Assembly: GCA_031414775.1 (NCBI GenBank)
Contig: JANOQI010000004.1
Span: 1-53,176, forward strand
DNA length: 53,176 bases
DNA from: Synechococcales cyanobacterium VAR_4_metabat_354
Lineage (GTDB): Bacteria; Cyanobacteriota; Cyanobacteriia; Cyanobacteriales; Chamaesiphonaceae
Direction of reading: 5' to 3'
In this document: positions 18,871-43,965 of the stretch, piece by piece
How positions within the stretch are numbered: the first letter of the stretch is position 1
Layout: every line of letters starts with the position of its first letter
Notes under the pieces: model-generated
Seen by the model: only the letters and a program-made list of their open reading frames with translations
Told to the model about the DNA's origin: nothing
The model's database searches: none
Position numbers and translations under genes: made by a program

Positions 18871-19018
18871 TCTCTGGAATTTCTCTAATTAATTTAGCGG
18901 GGTTTCCGGCAGCTATTGTCCAAGGAGCAACATCTTTAGTAACAACGTAGCCAGCACCAACGATAGCACCTTCGTGAATAGTTACTCCTTTGAGAATGAT
19001 TGCATTAAAACCAATCTA
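18860..19018 (-). pseudogene. Remnant of a hexapeptide-repeat O-acetyltransferase
   Basis: [54 protein letters not shown] at 19016-19018 sits where WIG is expected; most of the N-terminus is missing; the stop overlaps the methyltransferase start. Confidence 0.8.
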
Positions 19019-19088
19019 TATTTTGCTCTAGAATATGAACAGATTTTGATCTGCTTGTATTCAAAAAAGTCTTTAGCCCAATCTGAAT

Positions 19089-20048
19089 CTATTTAATTTC
19101 CTGAAGATGCTGATGAAGATATTCCATCATTTTAGAGCAACCTGCAAAGTGTATGAAATACCCTAAGTCATATATGTTATTAAGTGATTGCCTCATCAAC
19201 AAGGATTTAGGGTCTTTCTGCTGAATTTTACTGATCATTTTCTCTATCAGTAATAGTGATTGCCTTATTAATAAAGACTTAGGGTTCCCTCGTTGAATTT
19301 TGTTGACTGCTCTCTCTGCCAGCGATGTAAGAGAATTTGAATGAAATATGAATGGATAGAAAGCAGAAGTCAGGTCGCTAATGCAAAAGTTAAATTGTTG
19401 TGGAATCCAATGAACCATATCATTTTTGACAAGCTCATAGGACATTGCTGGCATCTCATAATTCCACTCAGCACTCTTATTTTCATCTTCATAGTTGTAG
19501 TAAATGTACTCAAAAATATCCCGGTGCTTTTCCGGTGAACAGACAAAAACTCCTGTCTGTACAACCTTGTCTAAATCACCACCGTGAATACCTCTATTCT
19601 CATAAAATAGACCTGGAGTTATATTATCTATGTATTTCATTCCTATACAACGATAGTTTTCATATAACCTTTTAAGAGCAATAGTATACAGTTCTCTAGA
19701 TGGAATGGAATAAGCGTCTACGGCACCAACTTTGTCAATTGGAACATTTTCTGCAATATCTGGTGCCAGGTCGGCATTAATAAATATATCTGTATCAACC
19801 CAGACGATTTGTTCATATTTTGACGACCAATCCTGAGAAAGAATTAGAAGTTTTTGCCAAGCTGGAGAGCGGTTCCTTCCTCTATCAGTCTCATCAAGTG
19901 AGTTTGTTAATACCACTAAGTCATAAGAATGTCTATTACAATAATAACTCCAATTCTTTTTGCAGTACTTCTCAAACATTTCTTCATATTTTTTACCGAT
20001 GGCAAGTGTGACTAGTGCTTTTTTGTTGATAGTGCTCATTTTCCTCAT
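19089..20048 (-). CDS. GT-A fold glycosyltransferase (GT34/GT8-like)
   Basis: PAWQKL, WVDTD (DxD), QTGVF, FIHFAG. Confidence 0.75.
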   Translation of the reverse strand: MRKMSTINKKALVTLAIGKKYEEMFEKYCKKNWSYYCNRHSYDLVVLTNSLDETDRGRNRSPAWQKLLILSQDWSSKYEQIVWVDTDIFINADLAPDIAENVPIDKVGAVDAYSIPSRELYTIALKRLYENYRCIGMKYIDNITPGLFYENRGIHGGDLDKVVQTGVFVCSPEKHRDIFEYIYYNYEDENKSAEWNYEMPAMSYELVKNDMVHWIPQQFNFCISDLTSAFYPFIFHSNSLTSLAERAVNKIQRGNPKSLLIRQSLLLIEKMISKIQQKDPKSLLMRQSLNNIYDLGYFIHFAGCSKMMEYLHQHLQEIK

Positions 20049-20218
20049 TGTTCTTATAAGTAAATCGGCATGATTATTGCTTGAGATTTAGTATGTAACA
20101 TTACCCAAATCTATGAATGTATTCTGATATTTAATGTTGTTGTCAACCTTTCTCACTTTAGTTTATTGAAGTCCTACTTTTACAAAAAACTTAGCCTTTA
20201 AATTTAATCTAAATACAT

Positions 20219-21139
20219 CTAATTACTAATTGAAGTAATGGTGTTTTTTATATTTCTTAGGATAGATAATCCTTTGTTACTGAATCCGCCCATTGATTGC
20301 TTAATTGCCTTCAAATCTTTTGGATTGATTACAACCGTTTTAGGTAAATTAATTTGATCTATCATCCAATTGTGTTCGGATTTATGTAAGAACCAAGCAG
20401 TGAACCACCCATGGCTTCCACTGCCATCAAATCCAATGTTTTTTACGTAAGTTGTTGGGGGGAATACAGCACATCCTTGATTTTTAAACACGCTCCAATA
20501 CCATCGAATTGCCCAAGAATCTATTTCTCCAGCCATTTGTTTTTTTATCATGTTAAAATAGTTAAAACTACTGTCTAAGTCAAAACGAGACCTCATTTCC
20601 TCGTCTGTTTTCAAAACTTCCCAGCCTGTTGCTTGTGGATCAAAGTATTGCCAAGCATTTTTCCATGTTGCCCATCCCCATGAACCTATAAAAGGCCAAA
20701 ACATCGCCTCATTGCGGTTAGCAAATTCCGGCACCGGAAACATGTAACCAGAAACCTGCATTACCGATGGCTCATCTTGATACGCCTCCAAAGCAGCATT
20801 CATATATTGCAAAAACCCAGGACTAACAATCAGATCATCTTCCAATACAATTACCCGCTCATAGTCATTTAGCAACCGACTTACGCCAGCGATAATGGAG
20901 TTTGCTAATCCTTGATTCTGAGCAGCTTCAATCATCTCAGCCCTTTCTCCGACCATCGATCTTACAACTGCGCGGGTTTCGTCAATAGCGGCCTGGTCTC
21001 CGGGTTTCTTCGCTCCATCACAAAACACATAGAGTTGACTTTCGGCAAACCCCGAGCACTGCACCAGAGATTCAATTGTCCGGCGCGTGTGGTCAGGACG
21101 CTTATAAACAAAAATAGCGATCGGAGCATAGTTCATCAA
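20219..21139 (-). CDS. GT2-like sugar transferase
   Basis: APIAIFVYKRPDHT, NQGLANSI, VLEDD, SWGWATW, NIGFDGSG. Confidence 0.88.
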   Translation of the reverse strand: MMNYAPIAIFVYKRPDHTRRTIESLVQCSGFAESQLYVFCDGAKKPGDQAAIDETRAVVRSMVGERAEMIEAAQNQGLANSIIAGVSRLLNDYERVIVLEDDLIVSPGFLQYMNAALEAYQDEPSVMQVSGYMFPVPEFANRNEAMFWPFIGSWGWATWKNAWQYFDPQATGWEVLKTDEEMRSRFDLDSSFNYFNMIKKQMAGEIDSWAIRWYWSVFKNQGCAVFPPTTYVKNIGFDGSGSHGWFTAWFLHKSEHNWMIDQINLPKTVVINPKDLKAIKQSMGGFSNKGLSILRNIKNTITSISN

Positions 21140-21185
21140 TTAAAATCCTCAGAGTGAAAAAGTAGAGTCTTAGTTTTGCAACGCA

Positions 21186-23120
21186 TTAACTTCCTGCAAG
21201 AATTCCTTCATACCATAATTCTAATAGCAGCAGCTTATAAAGCATGAATATATGCCTCTTGGACGTTGGGTAATCGTTAATCATTCGACCTAAATAATCC
21301 GAAGAAATAATCTTTAGAGAAACTAATCGCCCTGATGCCAGCTGATCAACATACTTATCTAAAATTGCCCTCATCCATTCATAGAATGGCGGCTGAAACC
21401 CTTGCTTTGGCCGATCCAAGACCTCGTCCGGCACAACGCCTCTTAACGCCGACTTCAGCCACGATTTATATCCTAAGTCATGGTCTGGCATAGCTTTACG
21501 CAGTCCCATCACTAGCTCAATTAGCTGATAGTCAAGGAAAGGTAAGCGCGTTTCCACTGAAGAAGCCATACTTAAGCGATCCCCCAATGGCAAACAGTTT
21601 GAGGCTAACCAGGTATCAAACAATAGTTTACAAACGCGGCTAGGCACATCTTGACAGTCTTTCAAACCATCCTCAAAAGCTTGGTAAGCATTTCGGATCG
21701 GCAACGAATTACTAAATTCTTGAGTGTATAAATTAGCTGTATAACCTACAGCATTTTTAAAATCTGGTGTCATATCGTAGAACACTGCCTGATAAGGATA
21801 GCTTAAGCTGAGATGATAATTACCAAGAGCTTGCCTCAGTAGATTACGTACTCCGGTTGGAACCTTAGGACTAACTACTAGTTTTTTGTACAGTGAATTA
21901 TTAGCAATAAAACTCAGAGCCTCTTCGTATTGCGAAGAACCTTGTGATTGCCTTAAGAGCTGTTGTTTCTGTTCTGAGAGCTTTACCGCATCCGAACACC
22001 AAGAATAGCCCCAAAATACTTCATCTCCACCAATACCACCCAACACGACTTTGACCCCTTTATCTGCCGCTAATTTAGATACTGAGTAGTGTCCATATGA
22101 CGCAATATCAGCAACCGGATCATCGGACATTGATATTAATGTAGGAAAAAAATCGACTAATTCTTCAGTTCTTAACTCAATGTCAAAGAAAGGCAAACCT
22201 AACTTTTGAGCAAGCTTCTCAGCCTTTCGCCGTTCATCAAAGGCTGGATGACCTGGATATCCAACACTAAAAGCTTGCAAGGTATCTCTATATTTAGGGG
22301 CTGCTAACGAAGCAATTCCACCCGAATCAATGCCACCACTTAAAGATACTCCTACCGGCACATCAGAACGTAGTGTTAATCCAATCACCTCATCTAGCTT
22401 CTGACGAATCAGTGTTGTGGGATCGCCTTCAATAGGAGCAATATTTTCTAGACTCCAGTACCGCTGAGGTGCAATTTGGAAATCTTTTGGATTAACAACC
22501 AAGTAATGAGCAGCAGGTAGTTTTTTCACCCCAACCAGAGGAGTATTGGGTTCAGGAACATATTGATAATGCAGGTAAGCATCAACTGCCAAGGAATCAA
22601 GCTCTGGCACTTTTGGTAATAATGACACCAAAGTACGTAATTCCGAAGCAAAGTAAAGGGTTTGATCTTGAACAGAGTAATAGAGGGGCTTCTCGCCAGT
22701 TCGATCGCGCGCTAAGAATAAAGTTTTTCGAACCTTATCCCAAACACCAAAAGCAAACATACCCCGCAACTTTTGTAGACAGTCTGTCCCCCACTCTATG
22801 TAAGCAGCTAAAAGAACCTCTGTATCAGTTTTGCTGATAAACTGATGCCCCAACTTAATTAACTCTTTCCTTAGTTCTAAGTAGTTATATATTTCTCCAT
22901 TGAAGGTAATAGTAAACCTTTGAGATCGATCAACCATTGGTTGATGACCTAATGAACTAAGATCAAGAATAGAAAGACGAGTATGCCCTAGTACAATAGA
23001 ATCTTCCAACCAAATACCTAGATCATCAGGACCACGATGATGCAGGAGCTTTACAGCTTTATCAAACGTAGAGCTTTGTTCAAAAGAAGAATTTGAAACA
23101 ACTCCAATAATTCCACACAT
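21186..23120 (-). CDS. asnB: Asparagine synthase (glutamine-hydrolysing)-type amidotransferase, probably for sugar amidation
   Basis: MCGI, HRGPD, FNGEIYN, LSGGIDS, GGDE, RLPFLD; lies inside the polysaccharide cluster. Confidence 0.92.
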   Translation of the reverse strand: MCGIIGVVSNSSFEQSSTFDKAVKLLHHRGPDDLGIWLEDSIVLGHTRLSILDLSSLGHQPMVDRSQRFTITFNGEIYNYLELRKELIKLGHQFISKTDTEVLLAAYIEWGTDCLQKLRGMFAFGVWDKVRKTLFLARDRTGEKPLYYSVQDQTLYFASELRTLVSLLPKVPELDSLAVDAYLHYQYVPEPNTPLVGVKKLPAAHYLVVNPKDFQIAPQRYWSLENIAPIEGDPTTLIRQKLDEVIGLTLRSDVPVGVSLSGGIDSGGIASLAAPKYRDTLQAFSVGYPGHPAFDERRKAEKLAQKLGLPFFDIELRTEELVDFFPTLISMSDDPVADIASYGHYSVSKLAADKGVKVVLGGIGGDEVFWGYSWCSDAVKLSEQKQQLLRQSQGSSQYEEALSFIANNSLYKKLVVSPKVPTGVRNLLRQALGNYHLSLSYPYQAVFYDMTPDFKNAVGYTANLYTQEFSNSLPIRNAYQAFEDGLKDCQDVPSRVCKLLFDTWLASNCLPLGDRLSMASSVETRLPFLDYQLIELVMGLRKAMPDHDLGYKSWLKSALRGVVPDEVLDRPKQGFQPPFYEWMRAILDKYVDQLASGRLVSLKIISSDYLGRMINDYPTSKRHIFMLYKLLLLELWYEGILAGS

Positions 23121-23387
23121 TACATTCTTACCTTAGTTATACTGCAAAGGAGCGAAACCATATGATAATAGCAATCATCATATTACAAAATAGTTATGAT
23201 TCGTACAAATTTTATCTTGTATTTTCAACACCCATCAATTCCAAGTTTATAGCCTTGCATCCAAGCTTTTTACAATTAACATAAGAAATAATTATCCTAT
23301 TCAATAAGATAATTTCTCGCTATTTCAGAATAGATTACTTTCAAGACTATAGACACAAAAATTATTTTACTGAGATTAATGATTGCA

Positions 23388-24665
23388 TTATGATTTTTCA
23401 AAATGTGCTTCTTGTATTCTTTTATAGATACTCGCATAATCTTTCTTTACCCACAAGTTATTAACCGCAAAAAGAAGGTACCAAAAGGCTGATGCAGCAT
23501 AAATTGCACCAGAAGTTAGTGACATAATGAAAGCTTGAACATAGAGAACACCAACCCAACCCCATGGATCTCGAGATAATGACAGATCCAATGATCTAAT
23601 TAAAACAACTAAACAAATCAGGGTAAATAAGCATCCACCAATTACACCCGTAGATAAAAATGATTCAACAATAATATTGTGCGGATATCCAAATTTTGGA
23701 AGTTCTACACCATAACCAAAAAAGGTATTGTGCCAATTCTCAGAAACTAACTTAAAAGACATTTGAAGGAAATCGCTTCTTTCAACAGCAGACTTGTCAC
23801 CAATAGATGTTAGCCTATCTAAATTGCTACCTTTTCCAACCTGTAATAGTGGCAAGATAAAATCTACCATCACCATACCACCAGCGATAGTAGCTGGCAA
23901 TCCCACATATATGATTTTACTAGCATAAGAAGCAAATATAATCAAAACACAAATCACAGTGGAAATTATTGGTCCTCTAGAAGCTGCCGAAACCAAGAAA
24001 TACAACCCTAATAGAATAGAAGCAAAGCAAATTATTCTAGTGACAAATCCACCAAATATTTCTTTTCCTTGCAGAAGGATATAAGTAGATAATATGATGA
24101 GTGAGCCGCTAAAAGTGCCTAATGAAATCGGATTCAAAGCCTCAGAAGATAATCTTCCCAAAACTGTATAAAAAACACTAGTTTTAAGATAAGAAAGTCT
24201 TGCAAGCATGAAAAGTCCAAAGGTAATTAAAGTACATTGAGCAATATATAAATACTCTTTAGGTCTTTTTAAATCTATCATTAAAAAGCTAAAACTCGGA
24301 ATCCAACAGATCAAAAACAAAAAAGAAAAATAATACTGCTCATCACCAAAAACTAGCTTTCCGTGAACATCATTGAAAAATCTGAAAGAATAAATAACCC
24401 AAAAAATTGCGACCAAAGGAAATATTCTAATAGACTCTCTTGATTTAAAATATGTCTTGCCATCCAAAAATTGGTCAATCACATTTTTCTTTTTTCCAAA
24501 TACTTTAATATATATAAAATAAAGAGAGATAACTAAAACTATCACCCGATAAGGAATCGTTAATAGTTTGGATTTTGCTTGGTCTGTCACAAATATAGCA
24601 ACAAGGCCATAGCCAAACATAATTAAAGAAAATGCAGCAGCATTTAAAAAAACTCTCAATTTCAT
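23388..24665 (-). CDS. O-antigen ligase/Wzy polymerase family membrane protein
   Basis: Multi-TM, AT-rich; SRGP, FFGYG, YPHNIIVE...GVIG. ATG at 24665. Confidence 0.8.
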   Translation of the reverse strand: MKLRVFLNAAAFSLIMFGYGLVAIFVTDQAKSKLLTIPYRVIVLVISLYFIYIKVFGKKKNVIDQFLDGKTYFKSRESIRIFPLVAIFWVIYSFRFFNDVHGKLVFGDEQYYFSFLFLICWIPSFSFLMIDLKRPKEYLYIAQCTLITFGLFMLARLSYLKTSVFYTVLGRLSSEALNPISLGTFSGSLIILSTYILLQGKEIFGGFVTRIICFASILLGLYFLVSAASRGPIISTVICVLIIFASYASKIIYVGLPATIAGGMVMVDFILPLLQVGKGSNLDRLTSIGDKSAVERSDFLQMSFKLVSENWHNTFFGYGVELPKFGYPHNIIVESFLSTGVIGGCLFTLICLVVLIRSLDLSLSRDPWGWVGVLYVQAFIMSLTSGAIYAASAFWYLLFAVNNLWVKKDYASIYKRIQEAHFEKS

Positions 24666-24787
24666 AATACTTTCCAAGCTATTATAGTTGATTATAAAAA
24701 TTGACAATTAAGCTAGATAAATATTTATTCATATCGAAATTGAAAAGCCCTATCATAGCAAACAATTTACAGATAATAGCTGAAATG

Positions 24788-26092
24788 TCAATTACCTAAG
24801 AACACAAGAGACTTTAACTGTACCAAGAATATTTTACGAGTCTTTGGATGTAAAATGTTAGCCAGAAATGCTGAAACTGCCTGAGATATAATAGTTGCTA
24901 TCGCTGCTCCTATTTCATGATAGTAGGGAATTAAAATGAAATTCAACACCACATTCATCATTGCTCCCAGTAAAGTGTTTTGAAAAGATAAGCGATTTAG
25001 TCTTTCGGCGATAAACCAAGGTGCCGTTGCAACGCCCATAAAGACAAATACACCAGCCCAAATGTGGACTGATAAAATCCGCCCAGATTCAATATACTCA
25101 TTACCAAACAAAGTAGTCACAATAAAAGTAGATAAGAAAGTCATCGGTAATGCCACCAGTATAGGTATCAAGGCCATCGTTCGAATCAACTTTTGAATTC
25201 TTTGATAATAAACTTCTTCACTAATCTTTTTCATCGCGTATATCGACGGCGCGATCGAGGACGAAACCACCGTTGGAATAAAATACCAAGCTTCAGAAAT
25301 ACGAGTTGCTGCTGAATAAACCCCTACAGCTTTTTCTCCAATCATTTCTCCCAACATGATTTGATCTATTCGCATGTAAATCATAATCGATAAGCCAGAA
25401 AGAATTAGTGGCCAACTTTCTTGAAGCAGCTTCTTAGCCAAGGATGAGTTCCATTGGAAAAGATTGATGGTATTGCCTTTAAACTTGAATAAAAGAAACA
25501 ATCCTAAAGCACCCAGCACAGATTCTATTAACGTAGCTATTGCAAATGCTATCAGTGGAGATTTACTATAAATTAATGCCAACCTCAGTGCAAAAGCTAA
25601 AATGAAAGCAGTATTTTTAGCAATCACAGTATATTTAGACTGCACCTGAGACTGAAACCAAATATCGATAGTGTCAAATGTTTGAATTACTCCTACCGCA
25701 GCTAGTATCGACACCAGTGAAATAGTAATTGAATCATTATGACGAAATAGATAGATACTACTTACGGATAAAAGTAATGAACTAAGGCCACCTAAAAACT
25801 TCAACCAAAAAACTGTCGGCAGAACTTTTCCCTTAGAAGATACATCATCAACAAGATAACGAATAACGACGGCATCGAGTCCTAGAGTAGCAATCGGTAA
25901 AAACATCGCTACAAATGCAGTAGCATAGTTAAAGGCACCAAATTGTGATGCACCTAGATAGCGAGCTATGAGCAAGGTTACATATAGACCAACCCCCATT
26001 CGCAAAATTTTATCAAGAAATAGCCATCCAATGTTGTTAATCACAACATGTAAGTTAGGTCTGTTTTTGATTTTATCAAAGTAATTTTTCAA
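24788..26092 (-). CDS. wzx: Flippase (Wzx)
   Basis: NIGWLF, ARYLG..FG, IYMRIDQIML, VGVYSAA, LIP...IGAAIAT. Confidence 0.9.
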   Translation of the reverse strand: MKNYFDKIKNRPNLHVVINNIGWLFLDKILRMGVGLYVTLLIARYLGASQFGAFNYATAFVAMFLPIATLGLDAVVIRYLVDDVSSKGKVLPTVFWLKFLGGLSSLLLSVSSIYLFRHNDSITISLVSILAAVGVIQTFDTIDIWFQSQVQSKYTVIAKNTAFILAFALRLALIYSKSPLIAFAIATLIESVLGALGLFLLFKFKGNTINLFQWNSSLAKKLLQESWPLILSGLSIMIYMRIDQIMLGEMIGEKAVGVYSAATRISEAWYFIPTVVSSSIAPSIYAMKKISEEVYYQRIQKLIRTMALIPILVALPMTFLSTFIVTTLFGNEYIESGRILSVHIWAGVFVFMGVATAPWFIAERLNRLSFQNTLLGAMMNVVLNFILIPYYHEIGAAIATIISQAVSAFLANILHPKTRKIFLVQLKSLVFLGN

Positions 26093-26175
26093 TGGTATTC
26101 ATTAAGATATAAAGACTAACTACCCGATATATGGCACTGTTCAGTAGTAGAGGAACTACCATAATGATATTGTCA

Positions 26176-27486
26176 CTACATAGGTATTCTCTTTAATGAA
26201 CTTCCTTGCAGATGATATATTTCTGTGTGCTTACCCTGAATTTCCAGTTTCACAGATCGAGTACCACAATCGGTAGATACCATCATAGTATCTTGCTCAG
26301 ATTGCCAAGGATTAGTTGCCATCATAATCCATTCATTTTTGCTAACCTTAAATTTGCGAACCAGAGGTTGTTGGTCACGCCACAATTCATGAGCTGACCG
26401 CTCTATAATCAACTGAGATTTAGCAATTTTATCAGACAAGTCTGCAACCCGACCAAGACTATTCACGAAAACTGGAAGGTTCCGATAAGGCTGTCCAGTA
26501 GACTTTGGCTCATACCCCCACAATACAATACCTTTAGCGCCAGTAAAAAATGGCAGCACGGCGGCGGCTTCTACCAAATAGTCAGGTAATTCCTGATTTG
26601 CCATCTTCTCATTACTTTCATGATATCTTAACCAAAAGTAAGCATACAAAGGCTTCTTACTAAATTTGCGGCTACGACGATAATTTTCCTCAATATTAGC
26701 AGCTAAGTAATAGATAGAATCAGGCAAGTCATAGAACATATAAACATCGGCAATATAAAAGTCTACATAAGGTTCAATATATTTCCATAATCTTAAATCA
26801 GCTTGGTGTTTCTGCTGTAGTTTTTCTGGTGTTGAAGATTTTACAAAACCCCAATAATCTCGATTAAAAACTTGTGCTCCATAAATTCCTACCGGTTTAT
26901 GAGGATAAAGCTGCTTAGACCATTTACAGGGAAGGGATAGCCAACTAGCATGCTGACGGTAATTTGCTTCAACAAAGTTCTCAAAATTACTTACTTTAGC
27001 AGATTCTCGAACAATTGGATTTGACCATAATTTCTTTAAATCCTGCTCAAAAATTGATTCTATGTCATGAACATAGATGGCACTTCCAGGAGTATGAAAA
27101 TCTCCGCCAGAGCCTGGAACATTAGCATTTCTAATATTTCTCTTAATTATTTTTTCAAAGAAAGGAGGTTTCAACCATGGATTACCATCATTCTTTAGTA
27201 AAAAAGCATCGATATTCTCTTTCTGTTTATTAGGATAATCTACAAAAGTATTTGATAATTGAACACTCTTAAATCCATGCTTCTCAGCTTGATTATAGTT
27301 GAACGGATGATCTCCTACATACACATTCCAAAAAGCCTTTAAATTTCCTTTCATCTTAATACTACGAATTGATGACCATGGAGTATAAATACTCTTTGCC
27401 GGTGATGACTGACAACCAATCCCAAATGCTACTGATGAAAGTAGATAGATAAAATTTCTACGACTGACCGAGAATTTAACTGACAT
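26176..27486 (-). CDS. Tat-signal (lipo)protein, putative glycoside hydrolase with hyaluronidase/GH56-like motifs
   Basis: SRRNFI twin-arginine motif, FGIGC lipobox-like site, then FWNV, YVHDIE, PHKPVGIYG, GAKGIVLWG. Confidence 0.6.
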   Translation of the reverse strand: MSVKFSVSRRNFIYLLSSVAFGIGCQSSPAKSIYTPWSSIRSIKMKGNLKAFWNVYVGDHPFNYNQAEKHGFKSVQLSNTFVDYPNKQKENIDAFLLKNDGNPWLKPPFFEKIIKRNIRNANVPGSGGDFHTPGSAIYVHDIESIFEQDLKKLWSNPIVRESAKVSNFENFVEANYRQHASWLSLPCKWSKQLYPHKPVGIYGAQVFNRDYWGFVKSSTPEKLQQKHQADLRLWKYIEPYVDFYIADVYMFYDLPDSIYYLAANIEENYRRSRKFSKKPLYAYFWLRYHESNEKMANQELPDYLVEAAAVLPFFTGAKGIVLWGYEPKSTGQPYRNLPVFVNSLGRVADLSDKIAKSQLIIERSAHELWRDQQPLVRKFKVSKNEWIMMATNPWQSEQDTMMVSTDCGTRSVKLEIQGKHTEIYHLQGSSLKRIPM

Positions 27487-27631
27487 TTAATTTAGCTCTA
27501 CTCTAAAAAAGATTAACTTGCTAATAGCTTATTAAAGAACGGAGTCTAATTATAACAATGAGCTACAGTTTGTATTAAAAAATACTTTTACTATTTTACT
27601 CTCCAGTCAAATTTGGGCTTCACCCTATTTT

Positions 27632-28234
27632 TTATAACTGTTTCACACTCTCGGCAAACAAAAAATTCACGGCTCCCATCAATTCTTCTAAATCTTCCAA
27701 AACATAATATTTCCGGTTCTTGGTAAACATCTCTTCCTCCAAAACTCCAAATTCCCACAGCTTCCCATTAGAAACTACTCCAAATAGTCTTTTCAGACTA
27801 TCCCCATTGATTTTTTGCGCCGCTAACATCTCTGCCAAACATTGACCCCACCCCTCCTCGAAATTATCCTTCTTTGCTTCCACCAAAATTACATATGGCT
27901 TCTCTAGAATCACCTTCCCTCGGATAGAACGCCGAGCAATAACATAATCTGGAACACCCGATAAATTATCATCATAATTGAGCGGCTGATGACTCCAAAT
28001 CAAAAGATCTTGAATATAAGCACGCCAAACTTCAGTCAAAATAGGAGAAATTATATTCTCACAGATGGCATACTCTGAGTTGAATACAATTCCTTCTTGA
28101 ACAACAGTGTTTAACCGAGAAAAAAAGTATTCATCACCCTGAAAGGCAACACTCTGAACAAAGTCTTGTTCTTGATAAGTCAAAGGAAAGCTTCCTAAGA
28201 CATCTGCAATACTTTTATAGTTTGTGAAAGCCAT
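27632..28234 (-). CDS. Cyanobacterial hypothetical protein with PD-(D/E)xK (HsdR-N-like) motifs
   Basis: NSEYAICE.IISPIL, GVPDY, LVEAKK, GQCLAEM, SNGKLWEFG. Confidence 0.75.
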   Translation of the reverse strand: MAFTNYKSIADVLGSFPLTYQEQDFVQSVAFQGDEYFFSRLNTVVQEGIVFNSEYAICENIISPILTEVWRAYIQDLLIWSHQPLNYDDNLSGVPDYVIARRSIRGKVILEKPYVILVEAKKDNFEEGWGQCLAEMLAAQKINGDSLKRLFGVVSNGKLWEFGVLEEEMFTKNRKYYVLEDLEELMGAVNFLFAESVKQL

Positions 28235-37413: not shown

Positions 37414-37446
37414 TCTGTATTTTACTGTGTGATTAGGGAATTTGCC

Positions 37447-37668
37447 ATGCTTGCTAAATTGACTACGAAAAACCAGCTGACCTTGCCTAAATCTATTACC
37501 AAGGAGATTGGAAATACAGAATATTTCGATGTAACAGTAGCAGCCGGACAAATTATTCTGACTCCTGTCAAAATTCAGCGGGCTGATGCTGTACGGGCAA
37601 AACTTACAGAACTAGACCTGAGCGAACAGGATGTTGCTGATGCTGTCGCTTGGGCGCGTCAACCATGA
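37447..37668 (+). CDS. AbrB/MazE-family antitoxin (copy 1)
   Basis: MLAKLTTKNQLTLPK...GQIILTP; ATGA overlap with the PIN gene. Confidence 0.88.
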   Translation: MLAKLTTKNQLTLPKSITKEIGNTEYFDVTVAAGQIILTPVKIQRADAVRAKLTELDLSEQDVADAVAWARQP

Positions 37669-38099
37669 CCAATGCTCGTTTCGATCAGCTGCGAATTGTG
37701 CTGGATACGAATCTAGTGTTGTCAGCGTTGCTGTTTGGCGGCAGTACCGCAAAATTGCGACTGGCCTGGCAAGAGGAGCAATTTATTCCCTTGGCTGCTA
37801 AGGCAACCATTACGGAACTGATTCGGGTTTTGGCTTATCCAAAGTTCCAGTTAACAACAGCTGAACAAGAGGATTTATTATCCGATTATTTACCATTTTG
37901 TGAAACAGTGCTGATTCCCGACGTATTGCCCGCGATTCCAGACCGTCGAGATCCTCTGGACGTGCCTTTTTTAGTGCTGGCGCTGGTGAGTCGAGCCGAT
38001 TATTTAGTGACGGGAGATAGGGATTTATTATGCCTTGCTAATCAATTTTCCTGTCCTATTGTGCAAGCCCAGCAGTTTTTTGCGATTAACAATTTTTAA
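37665..38099 (+). CDS. PIN-domain toxin (copy 1)
   Basis: VLDTNLVLSAL, EL.RVLAYPKF, RDPLD, YLVTGDRDLL. Confidence 0.88.
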   Translation: MTNARFDQLRIVLDTNLVLSALLFGGSTAKLRLAWQEEQFIPLAAKATITELIRVLAYPKFQLTTAEQEDLLSDYLPFCETVLIPDVLPAIPDRRDPLDVPFLVLALVSRADYLVTGDRDLLCLANQFSCPIVQAQQFFAINNF

Positions 38100-38192
38100 T
38101 TTATTCAGCAATATGTCTCTTATTCTCTTATTTACCTAGAATTAAATTAGTCTATTTCCTAATGTCGCAAGCTATCATTTTAATTAAAATTC

Positions 38193-38309
38193 ATGCAGAA
38201 TGGGATGGTGGATAAGGGGCGGGTTTATGGGGGTGGGATGCACAAATTGGAGCCGAGGGAGTTGGCTAATATTCCGGCGATGGAAATATTAAGGTTGATT
38301 AAAAGCTGA
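38193..38309 (+). pseudogene. C-terminal remnant of an N6-adenine DNA methyltransferase
   Basis: MQNGMVDKGRVYGGGMHKLEPRELANIPAMEILRLIKS*. GRxYGGGxxKxEPxE is a recurrent C-terminal motif of Eco57I/XamI-like methyltransferases. Confidence 0.65.
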
Positions 38310-38351
38310 GACCGTGGGCAATGGCTATCTTGTAGAGCTTGCGATTTGCTA

Positions 38352-39365
38352 CTACAATTCATTCTTGTCTAAACCCATAGCCAAAGCCAGTGGATATGTT
38401 ACGTCAGCCCAGTTGAATTCATGGTGCATTCTTGAGCCAGCATCTTCCGAGTTTTGAAAAACAATTATTTCTACTCCTCTATCTTCTAATTTTTCAAGAT
38501 AAGGAACATAAACGAAATCATCAGCCACCAGAAATACATGCTCTATGTCAATAATTCGATCAACTTGATTTTCTACTTTGACACATACAAAGTCTTGTGT
38601 TTTTAATTTGTATAAGTTGTAGTTAGATCCAACTGTTAATTTTTCGCCTGTCCATAGATCGTACTCTTCTTCTTCACCTATATATACAAAATCTTCCAGT
38701 CTAGAATTATCTAAACCTGAGTAGACTAAATAACAAGTTACTTTTTCTTTACATTCGATAGAAGCATATTTCAAAAACTGCTCTACAATACTATCAATGT
38801 TTGGTTTCTCAAGTATCTTTTCCGGGTATATTTCTTTGTAAATCCTTTGTGTTTGCACAATAGCTTTCTCAAGAAATATTCCATCTATAACTATAGAATG
38901 ATTTATTTTTGTTGATTGTTGGCTTACTGCTTGCTTTAAAAGAATGGTCTCAATTTTGAATACAGCTTCTCTTGTAAATGTTTTTTCTCTGAAATATTCT
39001 CGACATCGAAAATCTTTAGGAATAATTAGCTGAAAATCATTTCCTTTAATTTGCCAGTCATTGATTTCACTCCAAAAAAAGACGTAGAGAAAGTCATTCT
39101 TAGTTTCATCTTCTACTAAATATATAAAAACAACAAAATTCTCTTCTACATATTTAATTGGTATTGTTATATTAGAATTTTTCTTTATAGTTCTACCTTT
39201 GCATTGAACTTTAATAATGGGAGTAATCGTCTCGGAAATACTTTTAATTATCAGTAAATCAGTTCCTTCCTTATCAAAGGATGGTTTAGTGACAAGAAAG
39301 CCATGTTTGATTAAATTGTGCTTAATTAGGCTTTCTGCCTGATCTTCTAATGGTTTATTATCCAT
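38352..39365 (-). CDS. PD-(D/E)xK nuclease (DUF4365-like) fused to an NYN/LabA-like domain
   Basis: N-terminal AE...FDKEGTDLL...IKVQCKGR; C-terminal IVIDG...FLVADDFVYVPYLEKL..RGVEII; very AT-rich. Confidence 0.65.
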   Translation of the reverse strand: MDNKPLEDQAESLIKHNLIKHGFLVTKPSFDKEGTDLLIIKSISETITPIIKVQCKGRTIKKNSNITIPIKYVEENFVVFIYLVEDETKNDFLYVFFWSEINDWQIKGNDFQLIIPKDFRCREYFREKTFTREAVFKIETILLKQAVSQQSTKINHSIVIDGIFLEKAIVQTQRIYKEIYPEKILEKPNIDSIVEQFLKYASIECKEKVTCYLVYSGLDNSRLEDFVYIGEEEEYDLWTGEKLTVGSNYNLYKLKTQDFVCVKVENQVDRIIDIEHVFLVADDFVYVPYLEKLEDRGVEIIVFQNSEDAGSRMHHEFNWADVTYPLALAMGLDKNEL

Positions 39366-39366
39366 T

Positions 39367-40773
39367 TTAACAATTAGCTGCAAGTGCTAGAGGCAAAATA
39401 CTTCTGTCTGGTGCCTTGATATCTGCTACCTTTAAAGTCCGTAAAGCTTCATCATCAATGTGAGACAGTGTAATTAGTCTGTTTGCTTGTTTGGCAACAC
39501 TGCTATCAAAGAGATTTCTTGCAAAGCGACCGTTACCAAATGATTCGTCTTTTGAGTTTAATGCTGACGTGAATATCTGCATTGACTTTGCTGCTGCCTT
39601 TCCGGAAAGAACTAAACCCGCATTTTTTATCATTCCTTCAAATACCAATTGAAGCTCAAGAGGAGAATAATCAGGAAAATCAAGGTGTCTGTTGAACCTA
39701 GATTGAAGTCCTGGATTTGACTCAAGGAAAGCTGCCATCTTTCTTGGATAACCTGCAACTATAACGACAAGATCGTGCCGATGGTCTTCCATTAACTTAA
39801 GAAGAGTATCGATCGCCTCTTTTCCGTAAGAGTCATTTCCTTCTTGACTAAGAGTGTATGCTTCATCAATGAAGAGAACTCCACCAAGAGCAGATTCAAC
39901 TACTTCTTTGACCTTTATAGCAGTTTGTCCGAGATAACCAGCAACTAAACCACTACGATCCGTCTCAATCAAGTGACCTTTTGTAAGTACCTCTAAGCCC
40001 TTGTAAATTTCGGCAACAAGTCTAGCGATCGTAGTCTTTCCAGTTCCGGGGTTTCCGTAAAAAACTAAATGATTTGAGGCTTGTAAAACAGGAAGGCCAC
40101 GCTCTTTCCGTATACCATTGACCTTAAGCAAGTTTACAAGATTTCCGACCTCTAATTTAACAGGAGCAAGACCAACTAAGCCATCTAGTTCTATCAGAGC
40201 GTCTTCTACAGGTCTACCAGCAATTTGTAATGACTCGGGAGGAATAACATCTTCAGAAGATGACGTAGAGCAGTCGCTTTCGTATAAGACATTCTTCAGT
40301 TCCTCTAGAAAATCAGATTCATCTTCTTGAAAAGTCCCATCCGCGTTGGCCATAATAACTGCAAATGCAAGGTATAAATGTCGTAACGCATCCGCCAGAT
40401 CAGTTCCATAGGCATTGTCGTATACTTCGAGAAACCTTAGTGGGCGGGGCTTTAATCTAGCTAGAGAGTCCATACTCTCCCACTGTTCAGCACTTTGGTT
40501 ACCTAATGCTGTGTGCATAATTTCAGGTGAAGTATATGACTTATCTGGAAACAATTGCTCTAAATTAGAGAGAACTTCTGCTTCCGCTATATTAAGACGG
40601 CTATCGGCACCACACATACAAATACCAATAACTAAAAATGAATTGTACAGATCTTCCAATACTTCTGGCTCTGAATCTGATTCTTCTTGAATTGCATGTG
40701 CCACTTCAGACAGAGGCTCTAAAAGTGAGCTGACAATTTCAACGAAGTGGCTAGAAAATTCATTGAACTGCAT
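39367..40773 (-). CDS. TerB-like domain fused to a CbbX/SpoVK-family AAA+ ATPase
   Basis: CGADSRLNIAEAEVL and ANADGTFQEDESDFL (TerB ADG...E motifs); LVGLAPVK, HLVFYGNPGTGKTT, VLFIDEAY, NPGLQSRF, FGNGRFARN. Confidence 0.8.
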   Translation of the reverse strand: MQFNEFSSHFVEIVSSLLEPLSEVAHAIQEESDSEPEVLEDLYNSFLVIGICMCGADSRLNIAEAEVLSNLEQLFPDKSYTSPEIMHTALGNQSAEQWESMDSLARLKPRPLRFLEVYDNAYGTDLADALRHLYLAFAVIMANADGTFQEDESDFLEELKNVLYESDCSTSSSEDVIPPESLQIAGRPVEDALIELDGLVGLAPVKLEVGNLVNLLKVNGIRKERGLPVLQASNHLVFYGNPGTGKTTIARLVAEIYKGLEVLTKGHLIETDRSGLVAGYLGQTAIKVKEVVESALGGVLFIDEAYTLSQEGNDSYGKEAIDTLLKLMEDHRHDLVVIVAGYPRKMAAFLESNPGLQSRFNRHLDFPDYSPLELQLVFEGMIKNAGLVLSGKAAAKSMQIFTSALNSKDESFGNGRFARNLFDSSVAKQANRLITLSHIDDEALRTLKVADIKAPDRSILPLALAANC

Positions 40774-40975
40774 TTATTTTTCCTCTGTTGAGAGCCTAAA
40801 CAACGATTGACACTTTTATTCTTCCCCAATAGTTTATGGCAATCATCATAGCCAACAGGTGAAAACAAAATGTCCTCTCTCAAAAACGCAGTATTAAGCG
40901 CATCATCACTATTCAATCCCAGTGCCAGAGAATTCTCGTTCAAACTTGGCCTCCAAAAACATTGAGAGACCAAGA

Positions 40976-41332
40976 TTACGGTAAAGTGCGTTGGCGAATC
41001 TGATCGCGATCCACCACAGTAAATCGTTCCTCAAACAGCAATCCTTCCCTCCAGAATAAATTCAGCAATAACAATGCTGGCTCTTCCGGCGTGTGGGGAC
41101 GAAATCGCAAATAAATGACACCTTTGGGAGAACGTAGCCGCAAGCGATAAATAAGTTCACCATAATCACGATCGAAAGTCAAAATCACTCGTTGCTCATC
41201 TGCCGCACGCGCCAAAACCTCTGTATCTTCGATTCCTGGAGAATCCTCAGTTATTGAAGCGGTATCATACCCCTTCTCTCGAAGCAGTCGCACACTGGGC
41301 AAGAGAAAGTTTTCATTTGCCAGAAACCGCAT
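40976..41332 (-). CDS. DUF5615 PIN-like toxin
   Basis: MRFLANENF, D.EVL..A, VILTFDRDYGEL; overlaps the DUF433 gene. Confidence 0.85.
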   Translation of the reverse strand: MRFLANENFLLPSVRLLREKGYDTASITEDSPGIEDTEVLARAADEQRVILTFDRDYGELIYRLRLRSPKGVIYLRFRPHTPEEPALLLLNLFWREGLLFEERFTVVDRDQIRQRTLP

Positions 41333-41577
41333 CAGCTGGCCTCAGGCAACAATAAAGATGTATAGAATACATCCTCTTTGAGACATTCCGCCGCAAAAGA
41401 AAATACAGCCTGAATCGATTCCGGATGAAGTGTTGGATAGCTCTCTAAAACTTGTTGCTCCGACCATCCTTCTGAAAATAGTCCCAAAATAAACTCCACC
41501 GATAGTCGCGTTCCCTTGACTACAGGTTTGCCGAGCAGAATTTTAGGATCTGAATGAATATAAGTCTTCCAGTTCAT
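41332..41577 (-). CDS. DUF433 antitoxin
   Basis: IHSDPKILLGKPVVKGTRLSVE...YPTL. Confidence 0.9.
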   Translation of the reverse strand: MNWKTYIHSDPKILLGKPVVKGTRLSVEFILGLFSEGWSEQQVLESYPTLHPESIQAVFSFAAECLKEDVFYTSLLLPEAS

Positions 41578-41724
41578 AATTCAGCTTACCCCTCTAGTCG
41601 TTTGATCTATTATGCTCGATCGCACCTAACATTTTAGCTACTACCAACTCTAGCTCAAGAAATTCCTACTCTTCTCAATTACAACCCTACAGAGCTTCGA
41701 TCGAATGTAAAATTGACTTCGACA

Positions 41725-43965
41725 ATGGCGATCGACCAAACACAACACCGCCGTCCTCAGTCTCTGGAATCAATGATCTCCTCCACCGTCCAAACGCCCG
41801 AACAAGCCCTCAAGCACTTCTTTGGCTACGACAATTTCCGCCTCGGTCAACAAGAAGTAGTCCAAGCCGTGCTGGATAACCAAGACGTGTTGGTAATCAT
41901 GCCCACGGGTGGCGGCAAATCGATCTGCTTTCAACTCCCGGCGCTGCTCAAAACCGGCGTTACTATCGTGGTTTCACCGCTGATTGCCCTCATGCAAGAT
42001 CAAGTGGAAGCCCTCCAAGACAATGGCATTAGTGCCACTTTTCTGAACAGCAGCGTCAGTGGCATCGAAGTCCAAACTAGAGCGCAAAAAGTATTGAGCG
42101 GCGAAACAAAACTGCTTTATGTGGCTCCCGAGCGGTTAATGAGTGATCGATTTCTAGAATTTCTCGATCAAATTCACACCGAAATTGGGATTGCTAACTT
42201 TGCGATCGATGAAGCCCATTGTGTATCGGAATGGGGTCACGATTTTCGGCCAGAATATCGACAGCTCAGCACCATTCGGCACCGCTATCCCCTTGTCCCC
42301 TTTCTAGCTCTGACGGCCACTGCCACCCAGCGGGTGCGCCAAGATATCGTCAATCAGTTACAACTCCGACAGCCTAACGTTCATCTCTCTAGCTTTAACC
42401 GCCAAAACCTCTATTACGAAATTCGTCCGAAGGGTAAAAGCACCTACAAAGAGCTGTTGAAAGTAGTTCAACAGTCCAAAGGATCGGGAATTGTCTACTG
42501 CCTGAGCCGCAAGAAGGTGAATGAAGTTACGGCTCAACTACAAGCTGATGGTATTGATGCACTGCCTTATCATGCCGGATTAAATAACAAGGAACGAGAA
42601 ACTAACCAGCGTCGCTTTATTCGCGATGATGTGCAGGTGATGGTGGCCACCGTTGCCTTTGGTATGGGCATTAACAAACTGGATGTGCGGTTTGTGATTC
42701 ACTACGATCTGCCCCGCAATTTAGAGGGCTATTATCAAGAATCGGGACGGGCTGGTCGGGATGGGGAACCGGCTGACTGTATTTTCTTTTTTGGTTATGG
42801 TGACATTAAAACTATTGAGTTTTTAATTGCCCAAAAAGTCGATCCAGAAACGGGTGCACCCTTGGCTGAAGAACAGCAGGTGGCCAAGCAGCAACTAAAT
42901 CAAGTAATTGCCTATGCCGAAGGTACCGACTGTCGGCGGCGGATTCAACTGCGCTATTTTGGGGAAGACTTTCCTGGTAACTGCGGCAACTGTGACAACT
43001 GCTTGCGCCCCAAAGCTGAAGTAGACTGGACGATCGAAGCCCAAAAATTCTTGTCCTGTGTCTATCGCTGCAAAGGCAAGTTCGGGATGAAGTACACGAT
43101 CGATATTTTGCGTGGTTCCAAAGACAAGCGGATTCTGATGAATGAACACGATCAGCTCTCTACCTATGGAATTGGCCGCGACCATACCGCCGATGAGTGG
43201 AAAGTATTAGGCCGGTCGCTACTACACCAAGGATTATTGGCCGAAACCACCGACGGCTATGCAGTGTTGGGTCTGAATGATTTAAGCAAGGAAGTTCTGC
43301 GCGGTGACAGACAAGTGTTGATTTCGCTACCCAACCAACCCCAAGTGGTCACCGCAGCAACCTCTGCGGGGCGAGCGATGGCCGAATTGTTGTTCGATCG
43401 ATTGCGGGTTTTTCGCAAGCAAGTGGCCGATGCCCAGTCAGTGGCTCCCTATATTGTGTTTGCCGACTCCAGTCTGAAGCTAATGGCCAACCAGCAACCC
43501 CAAACACTAGCGGAGTTTGCCGAGATTTCGGGAGTGGGTAGTCGCAAATTAGCCCAGTACGGGGGAAATTTTGTGGCAGAAATTCGGGCTTTTTGTGAAG
43601 AGCAGGGGATTGCTTTGCGATCAGAACGAAATGTGATGCCTACGATTGCTTCGGCAGAAACGGGCCTTAGTCATTTAGAAACTCGCAATCTCTATCAGCG
43701 GGGATTATTACCTGCCGAAATTGCTCAGCAACGGCAGCTGAAGCTAGCCACGATTATGAATCATTTAGAAATATTGTTAGAAGCTGGTGAATTAACGGAT
43801 ATCGATCGATTAGTGCCCCCGGCACATCAGGTGGTAATTAAAGGTGCGATCGAGCAAGTGGGCGATAGTACGCTCAAAACGATCTATGAACATCTGAGTG
43901 AAGAGTATCACTACGACGAAATCAAATTAGTGAGAGCTGCGTGGCGGTCTGCTCTGACTCTCTAA
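41725..43965 (+). CDS. recQ: ATP-dependent DNA helicase RecQ
   Basis: MPTGGGKS, DEAHCVSEWGHDFRPEY, QESGRAGRDG, CRR...CGNCDNC, RQC/HRDC domains. Start uncertain (41725 or 41773). Confidence 0.95.
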   Translation: MAIDQTQHRRPQSLESMISSTVQTPEQALKHFFGYDNFRLGQQEVVQAVLDNQDVLVIMPTGGGKSICFQLPALLKTGVTIVVSPLIALMQDQVEALQDNGISATFLNSSVSGIEVQTRAQKVLSGETKLLYVAPERLMSDRFLEFLDQIHTEIGIANFAIDEAHCVSEWGHDFRPEYRQLSTIRHRYPLVPFLALTATATQRVRQDIVNQLQLRQPNVHLSSFNRQNLYYEIRPKGKSTYKELLKVVQQSKGSGIVYCLSRKKVNEVTAQLQADGIDALPYHAGLNNKERETNQRRFIRDDVQVMVATVAFGMGINKLDVRFVIHYDLPRNLEGYYQESGRAGRDGEPADCIFFFGYGDIKTIEFLIAQKVDPETGAPLAEEQQVAKQQLNQVIAYAEGTDCRRRIQLRYFGEDFPGNCGNCDNCLRPKAEVDWTIEAQKFLSCVYRCKGKFGMKYTIDILRGSKDKRILMNEHDQLSTYGIGRDHTADEWKVLGRSLLHQGLLAETTDGYAVLGLNDLSKEVLRGDRQVLISLPNQPQVVTAATSAGRAMAELLFDRLRVFRKQVADAQSVAPYIVFADSSLKLMANQQPQTLAEFAEISGVGSRKLAQYGGNFVAEIRAFCEEQGIALRSERNVMPTIASAETGLSHLETRNLYQRGLLPAEIAQQRQLKLATIMNHLEILLEAGELTDIDRLVPPAHQVVIKGAIEQVGDSTLKTIYEHLSEEYHYDEIKLVRAAWRSALTL

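Follow-up and report, generated by a model that had tools for sequence, protein, structure and literature searches.

McrBC combines an AAA+ motor, McrB, with a PD-(D/E)xK nuclease, McrC. Shedu (SduA), by comparison, is a single-gene PD-(D/E)xK defence. Two further anti-phage systems, Shango and Bunzi, contain TerB domains, as listed in Table 1 of PMC10952713. Another report (bioRxiv 10.1101/2024.01.29.577857) presents HEC-09, an Hma-embedded candidate from a defence context that consists of one protein with a MARF1-like NYN domain. Here, we consider two neighbouring genes on a 53,176-nucleotide (nt) stretch of a contig of Synechococcales cyanobacterium VAR_4_metabat_354 (JANOQI010000004.1; this whole stretch is the window). 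A first-pass annotation of the window, which also mentioned TerB domains in Shango and Bunzi, proposed that a TerB-AAA+ ATPase (gene 1) controls a nuclease (gene 2) in a dedicated two-gene defence system. Our analysis does not sustain this proposal. Probably, the two are separate accessory genes, juxtaposed locally in a 3.56-kb strain-variable block, and not a conserved pairing. The genes are as follows.

39367..40773, minus strand: gene 1, a TerB-like ATPase of the SpoVK/CbbX/EccA clade of AAA+ proteins, 468 amino acids (aa); called from the open reading frame (ORF) and Pfam AAA plus AAA_lid_6, with NCBIfam scores below cut-offs.
38352..39365, minus strand: gene 2, a PD-(D/E)xK plus NYN-like two-domain protein, 337 aa from an ATG, the final 3 bases being the stop codon; called from the ORF, its family, an alignment and an AlphaFold2 (AF2) model.

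Comparison with described systems

The locus resembles McrBC in that an AAA+ NTPase with a putative N-terminal sensing domain lies next to a gene for a PD-(D/E)xK nuclease. Unlike McrB, gene 1 falls in the SpoVK/CbbX/EccA clade (AAA plus AAA_lid_6) and not in AAA_5; gene 2 has an extra NYN domain, and the pairing is not conserved. An AAA_5 match to gene 1 (26.2 bits) is secondary to PF00004, and no McrC family is among the gene 2 matches at E ≤ 0.1. SpoVK, CbbX and EccA families match the AAA+ module and lid of gene 1 over their full length, at 232-276 bits. However, the cut-offs are 423-467 bits, the N-domain is TerB-like where that of EccA consists of tetratricopeptide repeats, and the genetic context differs. 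With Shango and Bunzi, gene 1 shares a TerB-superfamily domain. Neither system fits further: there is no PADLOC match to their proteins at E ≤ 1, in a library that we take to include both, and the block holds no helicase or other partner. IetAS was also rejected. The IetA profile gives 38.7 bits, over no more than positions 119-199 of 374, NCBIfam IteA has a score of 34.8 where the cut-off is 510, and no protease gene is present. PADLOC finds nothing else for gene 1 than this IetA P-loop region, and nothing better than E 0.011 for gene 2. The earlier view that the combination matches no named system therefore stands.

Gene 2 has its own set of relatives by structure. Like Shedu, it is one protein that joins a PD-(D/E)xK domain to an accessory domain, and is found in variable islands. 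Unlike Shedu, it has a different domain order and a different second domain, and no PADLOC match to SduA at E ≤ 1. Residues 1-147 have the predicted fold of I-Ssp6803I and of the DREN nuclease of SPARDA, with D...(D/E/Q)xK on the canonical strands. The differences are a glutamine (Q54) in the (D/E) position, fusion to an NYN domain, no Argonaute/APAZ partner and no intron context. Residues 152-332 are predicted to share the fold of MARF1-type NYN RNases, with aspartates conserved at strand ends. HEC-09, compared by its published description only, has a helix-turn-helix-like N-terminal domain where gene 2 has PD-(D/E)xK. In the literature searched, neither the gene 1/gene 2 pair nor a PD-(D/E)xK-NYN fusion is described; the TerB-AAA+ architecture may appear in 2012 work on Ter systems. 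Gene 2 is the type of an uncharacterised candidate single-gene nuclease family.

No pairing of the two genes at the other loci examined

The listing of ORFs in the window confirms that both genes are intact, on the minus strand, where the first-pass annotation had placed them. The junction reads TAA-A-ATG, leaving a gap of 1 nt. Note that a TTG codon is also open six codons upstream of the gene 2 ATG. Gene 2 has a GC content of 0.31 and gene 1 one of 0.41, compared to 0.48-0.52 for flanking core genes (radical-SAM, ychF, recQ and dnaJ). Hence, as noted earlier, both are richer in AT than their surroundings and are foreign by composition. The 1-nt spacing makes co-transcription of the two genes likely in this strain.

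Homologues of gene 2, at one genome per species, were found at 25 loci. At 19 of these the gene is full-length and, for 18 of the 19, at least 1.4 kb of upstream sequence is present. Searches by tblastn (E ≤ 1e-3) using gene 1, its N-domain or its AAA part matched none of the 25 loci. Similarly, a profile of the gene 1 N-domain found nothing in the five whole genomes, carrying gene 2 homologues, that were scanned. From the gene 1 side, metagenomes were scanned for SpoVK-like ATPases using generic Walker A patterns. Among the matches listed, which do not include the close gene 1 homologues P0066 and P0069, none of the 80 loci with a SpoVK-like AAA+ protein had a gene 2 homologue (E ≤ 1e-2). Indirectly, contig sizes point the same way for P0068 (NCBI MDY0206052.1), since no cluster of the gene 2 family sits on a contig of its size (71,629 nt); for P0069, this comparison covered some of the multi-contig clusters. 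With counts of 0/25, 0/80 among those listed and 0/5, gene 1 and gene 2 do not behave as a conserved two-gene system. As far as these loci and genomes go, the first-pass proposal thus fails by its own refuting condition, that homologues are never adjacent elsewhere.

We also compared, all against all, 160 ORFs lying within 3.5 kb of gene 2 at the 19 full-length loci. No conserved neighbour emerged. The only shared neighbours were due to synteny between two Brasilonema species, or were tyrosine recombinases (L009, L011, L012 and L015) and DRT2 (L012 and L015). In L015, the gene 2 homologue starts 3 nt after DRT2, which is a self-sufficient system. Hence, tight spacing is not specific to gene 1. 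We conclude that loci with gene 2 and lacking gene 1 argue for two independent genes, rather than a new two-gene anti-phage system.

Gene 2 is a predicted two-domain nuclease

The two domains of gene 2 are listed below.

38925..39365, minus strand: N-domain (residues 1-147), PD-(D/E)xK fold; E7, E11, D31, D36, Q54, K56 and R58 are invariant.
38370..38912, minus strand: C-domain (residues 152-332) with a NYN/PIN-like fold; invariant D161 and D283, plus D282 (conserved to at least 90%).

These residues come from a family alignment of 22 sequences that are 29-70% identical. In the second half of the protein, the invariant positions are D161, R270, A281 and D283. Pfam is of little help here: PDDEXK_5 reaches 22.6 bits, under a cut-off of 26.1, and the C-domain has no Pfam match. 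A sequence search of solved chains with the gene 2 profile was also negative (0 matches at E ≤ 1). The PD-(D/E)xK-NYN label of the first-pass annotation is nonetheless secured, without Pfam, by fold and conservation. The AF2 model has a mean predicted local distance difference test score (pLDDT) of 83.5. With VIA, residues 1-147 best match I-Ssp6803I (2ost; Z 13.0, root-mean-square deviation (rmsd) 3.1, 128 residues aligned), followed by fusellovirus D212 (Z 10.4) and Hjc (Z 9.7). Foldseek places DREN nuclease domains of SPARDA on top (E 3.4e-6) and also finds I-Ssp6803I (5.7e-5). In the model, D36 precedes the strand at 37-40, and Q54-x-K56 lies within the strand at 50-60. The predicted layout of the N-domain is thus the canonical one for PD-(D/E)xK nucleases, with Q54 in the acidic position.

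For residues 152-332, VIA gives the MARF1 NYN domain (Z 14.5, rmsd 2.6, 137 residues aligned) and VPA0982 (2qip; Z 12.1). Acidic residues sit at the strand ends. DxxN is motif 1 of NYN/PIN-like nucleases; in gene 2 the asparagine of this motif is absent (F164). Taken with the conserved residues, the predicted folds suggest that gene 2 encodes an active nuclease.

The family comprises 64 clusters at 90% identity, spread over at least four phyla: Cyanobacteria, Bacteroidota, Gammaproteobacteria and Campylobacterota. No family forms of 591-2000 aa, which would indicate fusions, were seen, although this is weak evidence. Gene 2 has no match in 50,697 phage records and is found at only two loci in IMG/VR. 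The only plasmid match is a fragment of 131 aa on the conjugative plasmid pREB5 of Acaryochloris marina (L137, record 9300-9695). It matches the N-terminal 105 residues of gene 2, with 39% identity, and lies between two insertion sequence (IS) transposases. In a separate observation, the closest homologue in a genome (L005:1483-2493; 69% identity), from a metagenome-assembled genome (MAG) of Pseudanabaena, is split into ORFs of 155 and 167 aa. This may be a pseudogene or an assembly error.

Genes around gene 2 homologues

We compared the neighbours of the 19 full-length gene 2 homologues with PADLOC. At E ≤ 1e-10, 11 of 111 neighbouring ORFs match, in nine of the loci. As a control, 111 ORFs drawn at random from the SpoVK-like metagenome loci, and not matched for taxon, gave four matches. 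Those near gene 2 are DRT2 (twice), SoFic, a type IV restriction enzyme, HerA, PDC-S03 (twice), PDC-M11A, PDC-S15, a Cas12f/TnpB-like protein and UvrB. Note that the UvrB match is a false positive. Known or candidate defence genes thus occur within 3.5 kb of the gene 2 homologue at 8 of 19 loci, or nine if the TnpB/Cas12f-like match is included. Overall, the neighbours are variable, and include integrases, transposases, IS elements, toxin-antitoxin genes, DRT2 and SoFic.

Some individual loci are described here. DRT2 stands beside gene 2 homologues at L015:4498-6975 (PADLOC E 2e-133) and L012:6001-9144 (7.5e-131). In L012, it is about 640 nt downstream of the gene 2 homologue, and the DRT2 proteins of L012 and L015 share only about 28% identity. 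A HerA-like gene and NurA lie beside the gene 2 homologue at L016:7264-10822, and NurA alone at L008:7180-8370. In L007, a DUF433 gene is found 215 nt downstream of the gene 2 homologue.

Gene 1 is a TerB-like member of the SpoVK/CbbX/EccA clade

Gene 1 also has two parts.

40264..40773, minus strand: N-domain (about residues 1-170), all-helical, TerB superfamily; two A-D-x..E motifs and a central YD..GT motif.
39418..40191, minus strand: AAA+ module with lid (residues 195-452); Walker A K246, Walker B D303/E304, SRF arginine R359 and GNGR at 413-416.

Every motif that the first-pass annotation had picked out is present. Walker A (GNPGTGKT) spans residues 240-247, IDEAY 302-306, SRF 358-360 and GNGR 413-416, and the two A-D-x...E motifs are at 55-66 and 142-154. 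Pfam AAA (PF00004; 2.7e-18, 67.1 bits) and AAA_lid_6 (PF17866; 1.3e-15, 57.6 bits) both match above their cut-offs. This order, a classical AAA core followed by AAA_lid_6, is that of the SpoVK/CbbX/EccA clade. NCBIfam equivalogs for SpoVK (275.7 bits, cut-off 422.95), EccA (248.4, cut-off 466.65) and CbbX (231.8, cut-off 459.25) match across the entire ATPase module. Since all scores are below the equivalog cut-offs, gene 1 is a member of the clade and none of the named proteins. It is most likely a hexameric remodeller.

The N-domain needed more work, as its Pfam TerB (PF05099) score, 16.5 bits, falls short of the 24.4-bit cut-off. With residues 1-195 as the query, an exhaustive HMMER search gave 32 relatives at E ≤ 1e-3. 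Among the 29 that were scanned, 14 have AAA and AAA_lid_6, two more, which are cut short, have AAA alone, and four reach the TerB cut-off (P0073, P0076, P0092 and P0099). Applied to 401 genomes from another phylum, an N-domain alignment and profile, A3, retrieves TerB plus DnaJ proteins in 11, and all four of these proteins that were checked score 68-83 bits on Pfam TerB. The AF2 model of the N-domain is all-helical (pLDDT 82.9). It has no Foldseek match at E ≤ 0.001. In a wide VIA search, the top three chains include PG1108 (2h5n, Z 6.0), which we take to be a TerB-family structure, and a COG3793 tellurite-resistance protein (2ou3, Z 5.6). Z values of this size are low for helical domains; 2ou3 also has an E-value of 0.021. 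Hence, the profile evidence carries the assignment. By profile and fold, the N-domain belongs to the TerB superfamily, and the original call of a TerB-like domain joined to a SpoVK-type AAA+ module is upheld.

Close homologues of gene 1 are scarce: an index of 5.8 billion proteins holds only four (P0066-P0069). One is from a Pseudomonas MAG, and is 63% identical overall, with a very similar ATPase module. This similarity points to horizontal spread. Among 400 other cyanobacterial genomes, the N-domain was found in none by single sequence and in three by profile. The genes that follow these three TerB-like AAA+ genes encode DUF1825 (convergent), ACBP and a permease; no nuclease gene adjoins any of the three. 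There was no match of the N-domain to plasmids, a scan of viral contigs with alignment A2 gave no relative, and a protein atlas look-up gave leads below 0.9 only.

Two observations on related ATPases stand apart. Besides gene 1, the genome of the window has another SpoVK-type AAA+ match (G000:C48:101012-101848) that is 51% identical to the ATPase module of gene 1 and has stop codons inside. Elsewhere, distant DUF4236-(FtsK_gamma)-TerB-like-AAA+ proteins of 659-812 aa are encoded at L041:330-4023, L043:314-4380, L068:412-4111 and L083:2878-6694. An Ion_trans gene tightly adjoins all four, L043 also has a separate small TerB protein, and PADLOC reports only generic AAA matches. The DUF4236/Ion_trans loci may be an undescribed conflict system.

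A strain-variable block

Gene 1 and gene 2 lie in a block that varies between strains. The block and its surroundings contain the following.

38195..41752, no strand: presence/absence block of 3,558 nt, with the methylase remnant, gene 2, gene 1, DUF5615 and DUF433; defined by contigs joining 38194 to 41753 and by congener G407.
38193..38309, plus strand: remnant of an N-6/Eco57I-type DNA methylase C-terminus, 38 codons (38193-38306) and a stop; identified by matches in plasmid records.
40976..41332, minus strand: DUF5615 (PIN/Mut7-C-like) toxin-type gene (Pfam 4.4e-24).
41332..41577, minus strand: DUF433 antitoxin-type gene (Pfam 1.1e-19).
37650..38099, plus strand: PIN_3 toxin gene, outside the block (Pfam 7.5e-17); truncated in G407.
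37429-37668: ORF of 79 aa labelled 'AbrB' antitoxin; no Pfam match.

Of the neighbours named in the first-pass annotation, the PIN gene, the DUF433/DUF5615 pair and the methylase remnant are all confirmed. The AbrB label is not; it came from a motif only. The remnant matches the C-termini of proteins in 11 plasmid records (best E 4e-6). Annotations of these, for the 10 listed, are N-6 DNA methylase, Eco57I-domain methylase or restriction subunit M.

The block is flanked by the PIN gene on one side and recQ on the other. In runs X5, X6 and X7 of another study, contigs join position 38194 to 41753 with 53 other letters between. Such contigs have depths of 9.9, 9.9 and 6.9; for contigs that carry the island, the depth in those runs is about 5-6.7. 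Hence, the island and the 53-letter variant coexist in X5-X7. One island-bearing contig (38226-39873) crosses the gene 1/gene 2 junction. However, the second study holds a near-identical strain, so this is not independent evidence for pairing. Congener G407 lacks about 37756-41690: its alignment runs to 37755 and resumes at 41722, with about 35 nt between, and the PIN gene is truncated. There are, therefore, two different island-less alleles, the 53-letter replacement in X5-X7 and the larger deletion in G407. Within the genus, 11 other genomes were searched, and all lack gene 2. They also lack any SpoVK-type match to gene 1, and give no more than weak matches (about 1e-6 to 1e-8), to ORFs some 750-900 aa long. 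No direct repeats flank the island.

We conclude that the methylase remnant, gene 2, gene 1, DUF5615 and DUF433 are a single presence/absence unit, and that the interval from PIN to recQ is a hot spot of variation. This polymorphism shows joint mobility and says nothing for joint function. The DUF433/DUF5615 genes, being upstream, are possibly on the same transcript as gene 1 and gene 2. On the minus strand, upstream of this four-gene group, there is a single promoter-like site (41658-41631). Note that the promoter/terminator scan gave no more sites than in shuffled sequence.

Other variation was also seen in the window. A contig from run X7 (depth 4.5) has a 23-nt insertion after 41161, inside DUF5615, that would shift the frame of this toxin-type gene. 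Further away, positions 19001-28000 have a GC content of 0.30-0.38, compared to a window mean of 0.44, and strongly negative GC skew. This stretch may be another foreign island.

Discussion

We favour the explanation that gene 1 and gene 2 are separate accessory genes brought together in a variable block. Gene 2 would then need no dedicated partner; its most likely role would be that of a one-gene nuclease for defence or addiction. By analogy with I-Ssp6803I and SPARDA DREN, its DNase domain (E7/E11...D36...Q54-x-K56) may need oligomerisation for activity. I-Ssp6803I is a tetramer according to a review (PMC3384342), and DREN activity is reported to depend on tetramers (bioRxiv 10.1101/2025.04.08.647717). 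The NYN domain (D161, D282 and D283) could be a second nuclease, acting on RNA, or a part used for sensing or assembly. For gene 1, the TerB-like N-domain is likely the sensor or client-binding part of a hexameric remodeller.

Several points weigh against this explanation. The 1-nt gap, on the same strand, looks like that of translationally coupled partners, and the two genes share an AT-rich composition and come and go as one block. The test from the gene 1 side is thin, since it reaches the neighbours of the four closest homologues (P0066-P0069) indirectly at best. Distantly related DUF4236-(FtsK_gamma)-TerB-like-AAA+ proteins adjoin an ion-channel gene at four of four loci, and at two of these Endonuclease_NS is adjacent too. 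Hence, ATPases of gene 1's kind can have effector-like neighbours. The excess of PADLOC matches near gene 2 (11/111 against 4/111) is suggestive, with a one-sided Fisher p of 0.053. Finally, how an unpartnered double nuclease avoids self-toxicity is left unexplained if gene 2 works alone. A complex prediction for gene 1 with gene 2 scored 0.00, which is no verdict, and was weighed neither way.

Some of the same observations would be expected of a genuine McrBC-like two-gene system. Here, a TerB-AAA+ hexamer would sense infection, or membrane or metal stress, and activate or unleash the gene 2 nuclease to bring about abortive infection; the pair would be a recent assembly, with a nuclease that normally has no partner set behind a modular ATPase. 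Spacing, joint presence and absence in populations, and shared foreign composition all agree with this, as does the company kept by DUF4236-class relatives: ion channels (L041, L043, L068 and L083) and Endonuclease_NS (L068 and L083). At L084, which holds a short-class relative, an ORF overlaps on the downstream side and is broken by the contig end, and the TerB domains tabulated for Shango and Bunzi (PMC10952713) give precedent. Nevertheless, we consider such a system unlikely. The pair never recurs in the loci and genomes covered above, three cyanobacterial TerB-AAA+ genes have no nuclease neighbour, gene 2 homologues evidently function without gene 1, and the lack of fused forms, for what this is worth, adds to the case. 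A broader proposal is that TerB-like SpoVK-clade AAA+ proteins power a class of conflict systems, as yet undescribed, whose effectors can be exchanged (Endonuclease_NS and ion channels in the DUF4236/FtsK_gamma class, PD-(D/E)xK-NYN here), and that this locus is a fresh McrBC-like abortive-infection pair. We regard that as distinctly doubtful.

Could gene 2 have no immune role at all? It might instead be a homing-type endonuclease, selfish and free-standing, or an enzyme that processes nucleic acids (junction resolvase plus RNase), moving from one variable region to another, with gene 1 being a stress-related remodeller. The best N-domain fold match, to a cyanobacterial homing endonuclease, with Hjc resolvases next, would suit this idea. 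So would neighbours rich in integrases, transposases and IS elements, and a PADLOC enrichment that falls short of significance. In addition, HEC-09, which likewise has a MARF1-like NYN domain in a one-protein design, is reported not to have defended against the phages it was tested on (bioRxiv 10.1101/2024.01.29.577857). Yet gene 2 is missing from the phage records and nearly so from IMG/VR, no intron or intein context was seen, and defence genes or candidates are close by at 8 (or 9) of the 19 full-length loci. On balance, we judge a gene 2 without an immune role quite improbable. At the other extreme, the four genes on the minus strand of the block (DUF433, DUF5615, gene 1 and gene 2) could together be one composite operon-level system. 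They share a strand, are gained or lost as one block, and have the promoter-like site at 41658-41631 as the sole such site upstream on that strand, in a scan no richer than shuffled sequence; L007 also has DUF433 downstream of its gene 2 homologue. However, DUF433/DUF5615 is a widespread self-contained pair, a gap of 200 nt separates DUF5615 from gene 1, and L007 is the only one of 19 loci with DUF433 near gene 2. A four-gene system is thus very improbable.

If the pair were a system, it would be a new ATPase-nuclease design; the evidence against this spares a bench test of the wrong unit. The locus itself is a clean natural presence/absence polymorphism, usable in population data, and TerB-like AAA+ remodellers are rare, horizontally spread genes. 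Returning to the reading that we prefer, of two separate accessory genes, gene 2 defines an unnamed, conserved PD-(D/E)xK plus NYN family without a conserved partner gene. The family offers a tractable single-gene candidate for phage-defence or toxicity assays.

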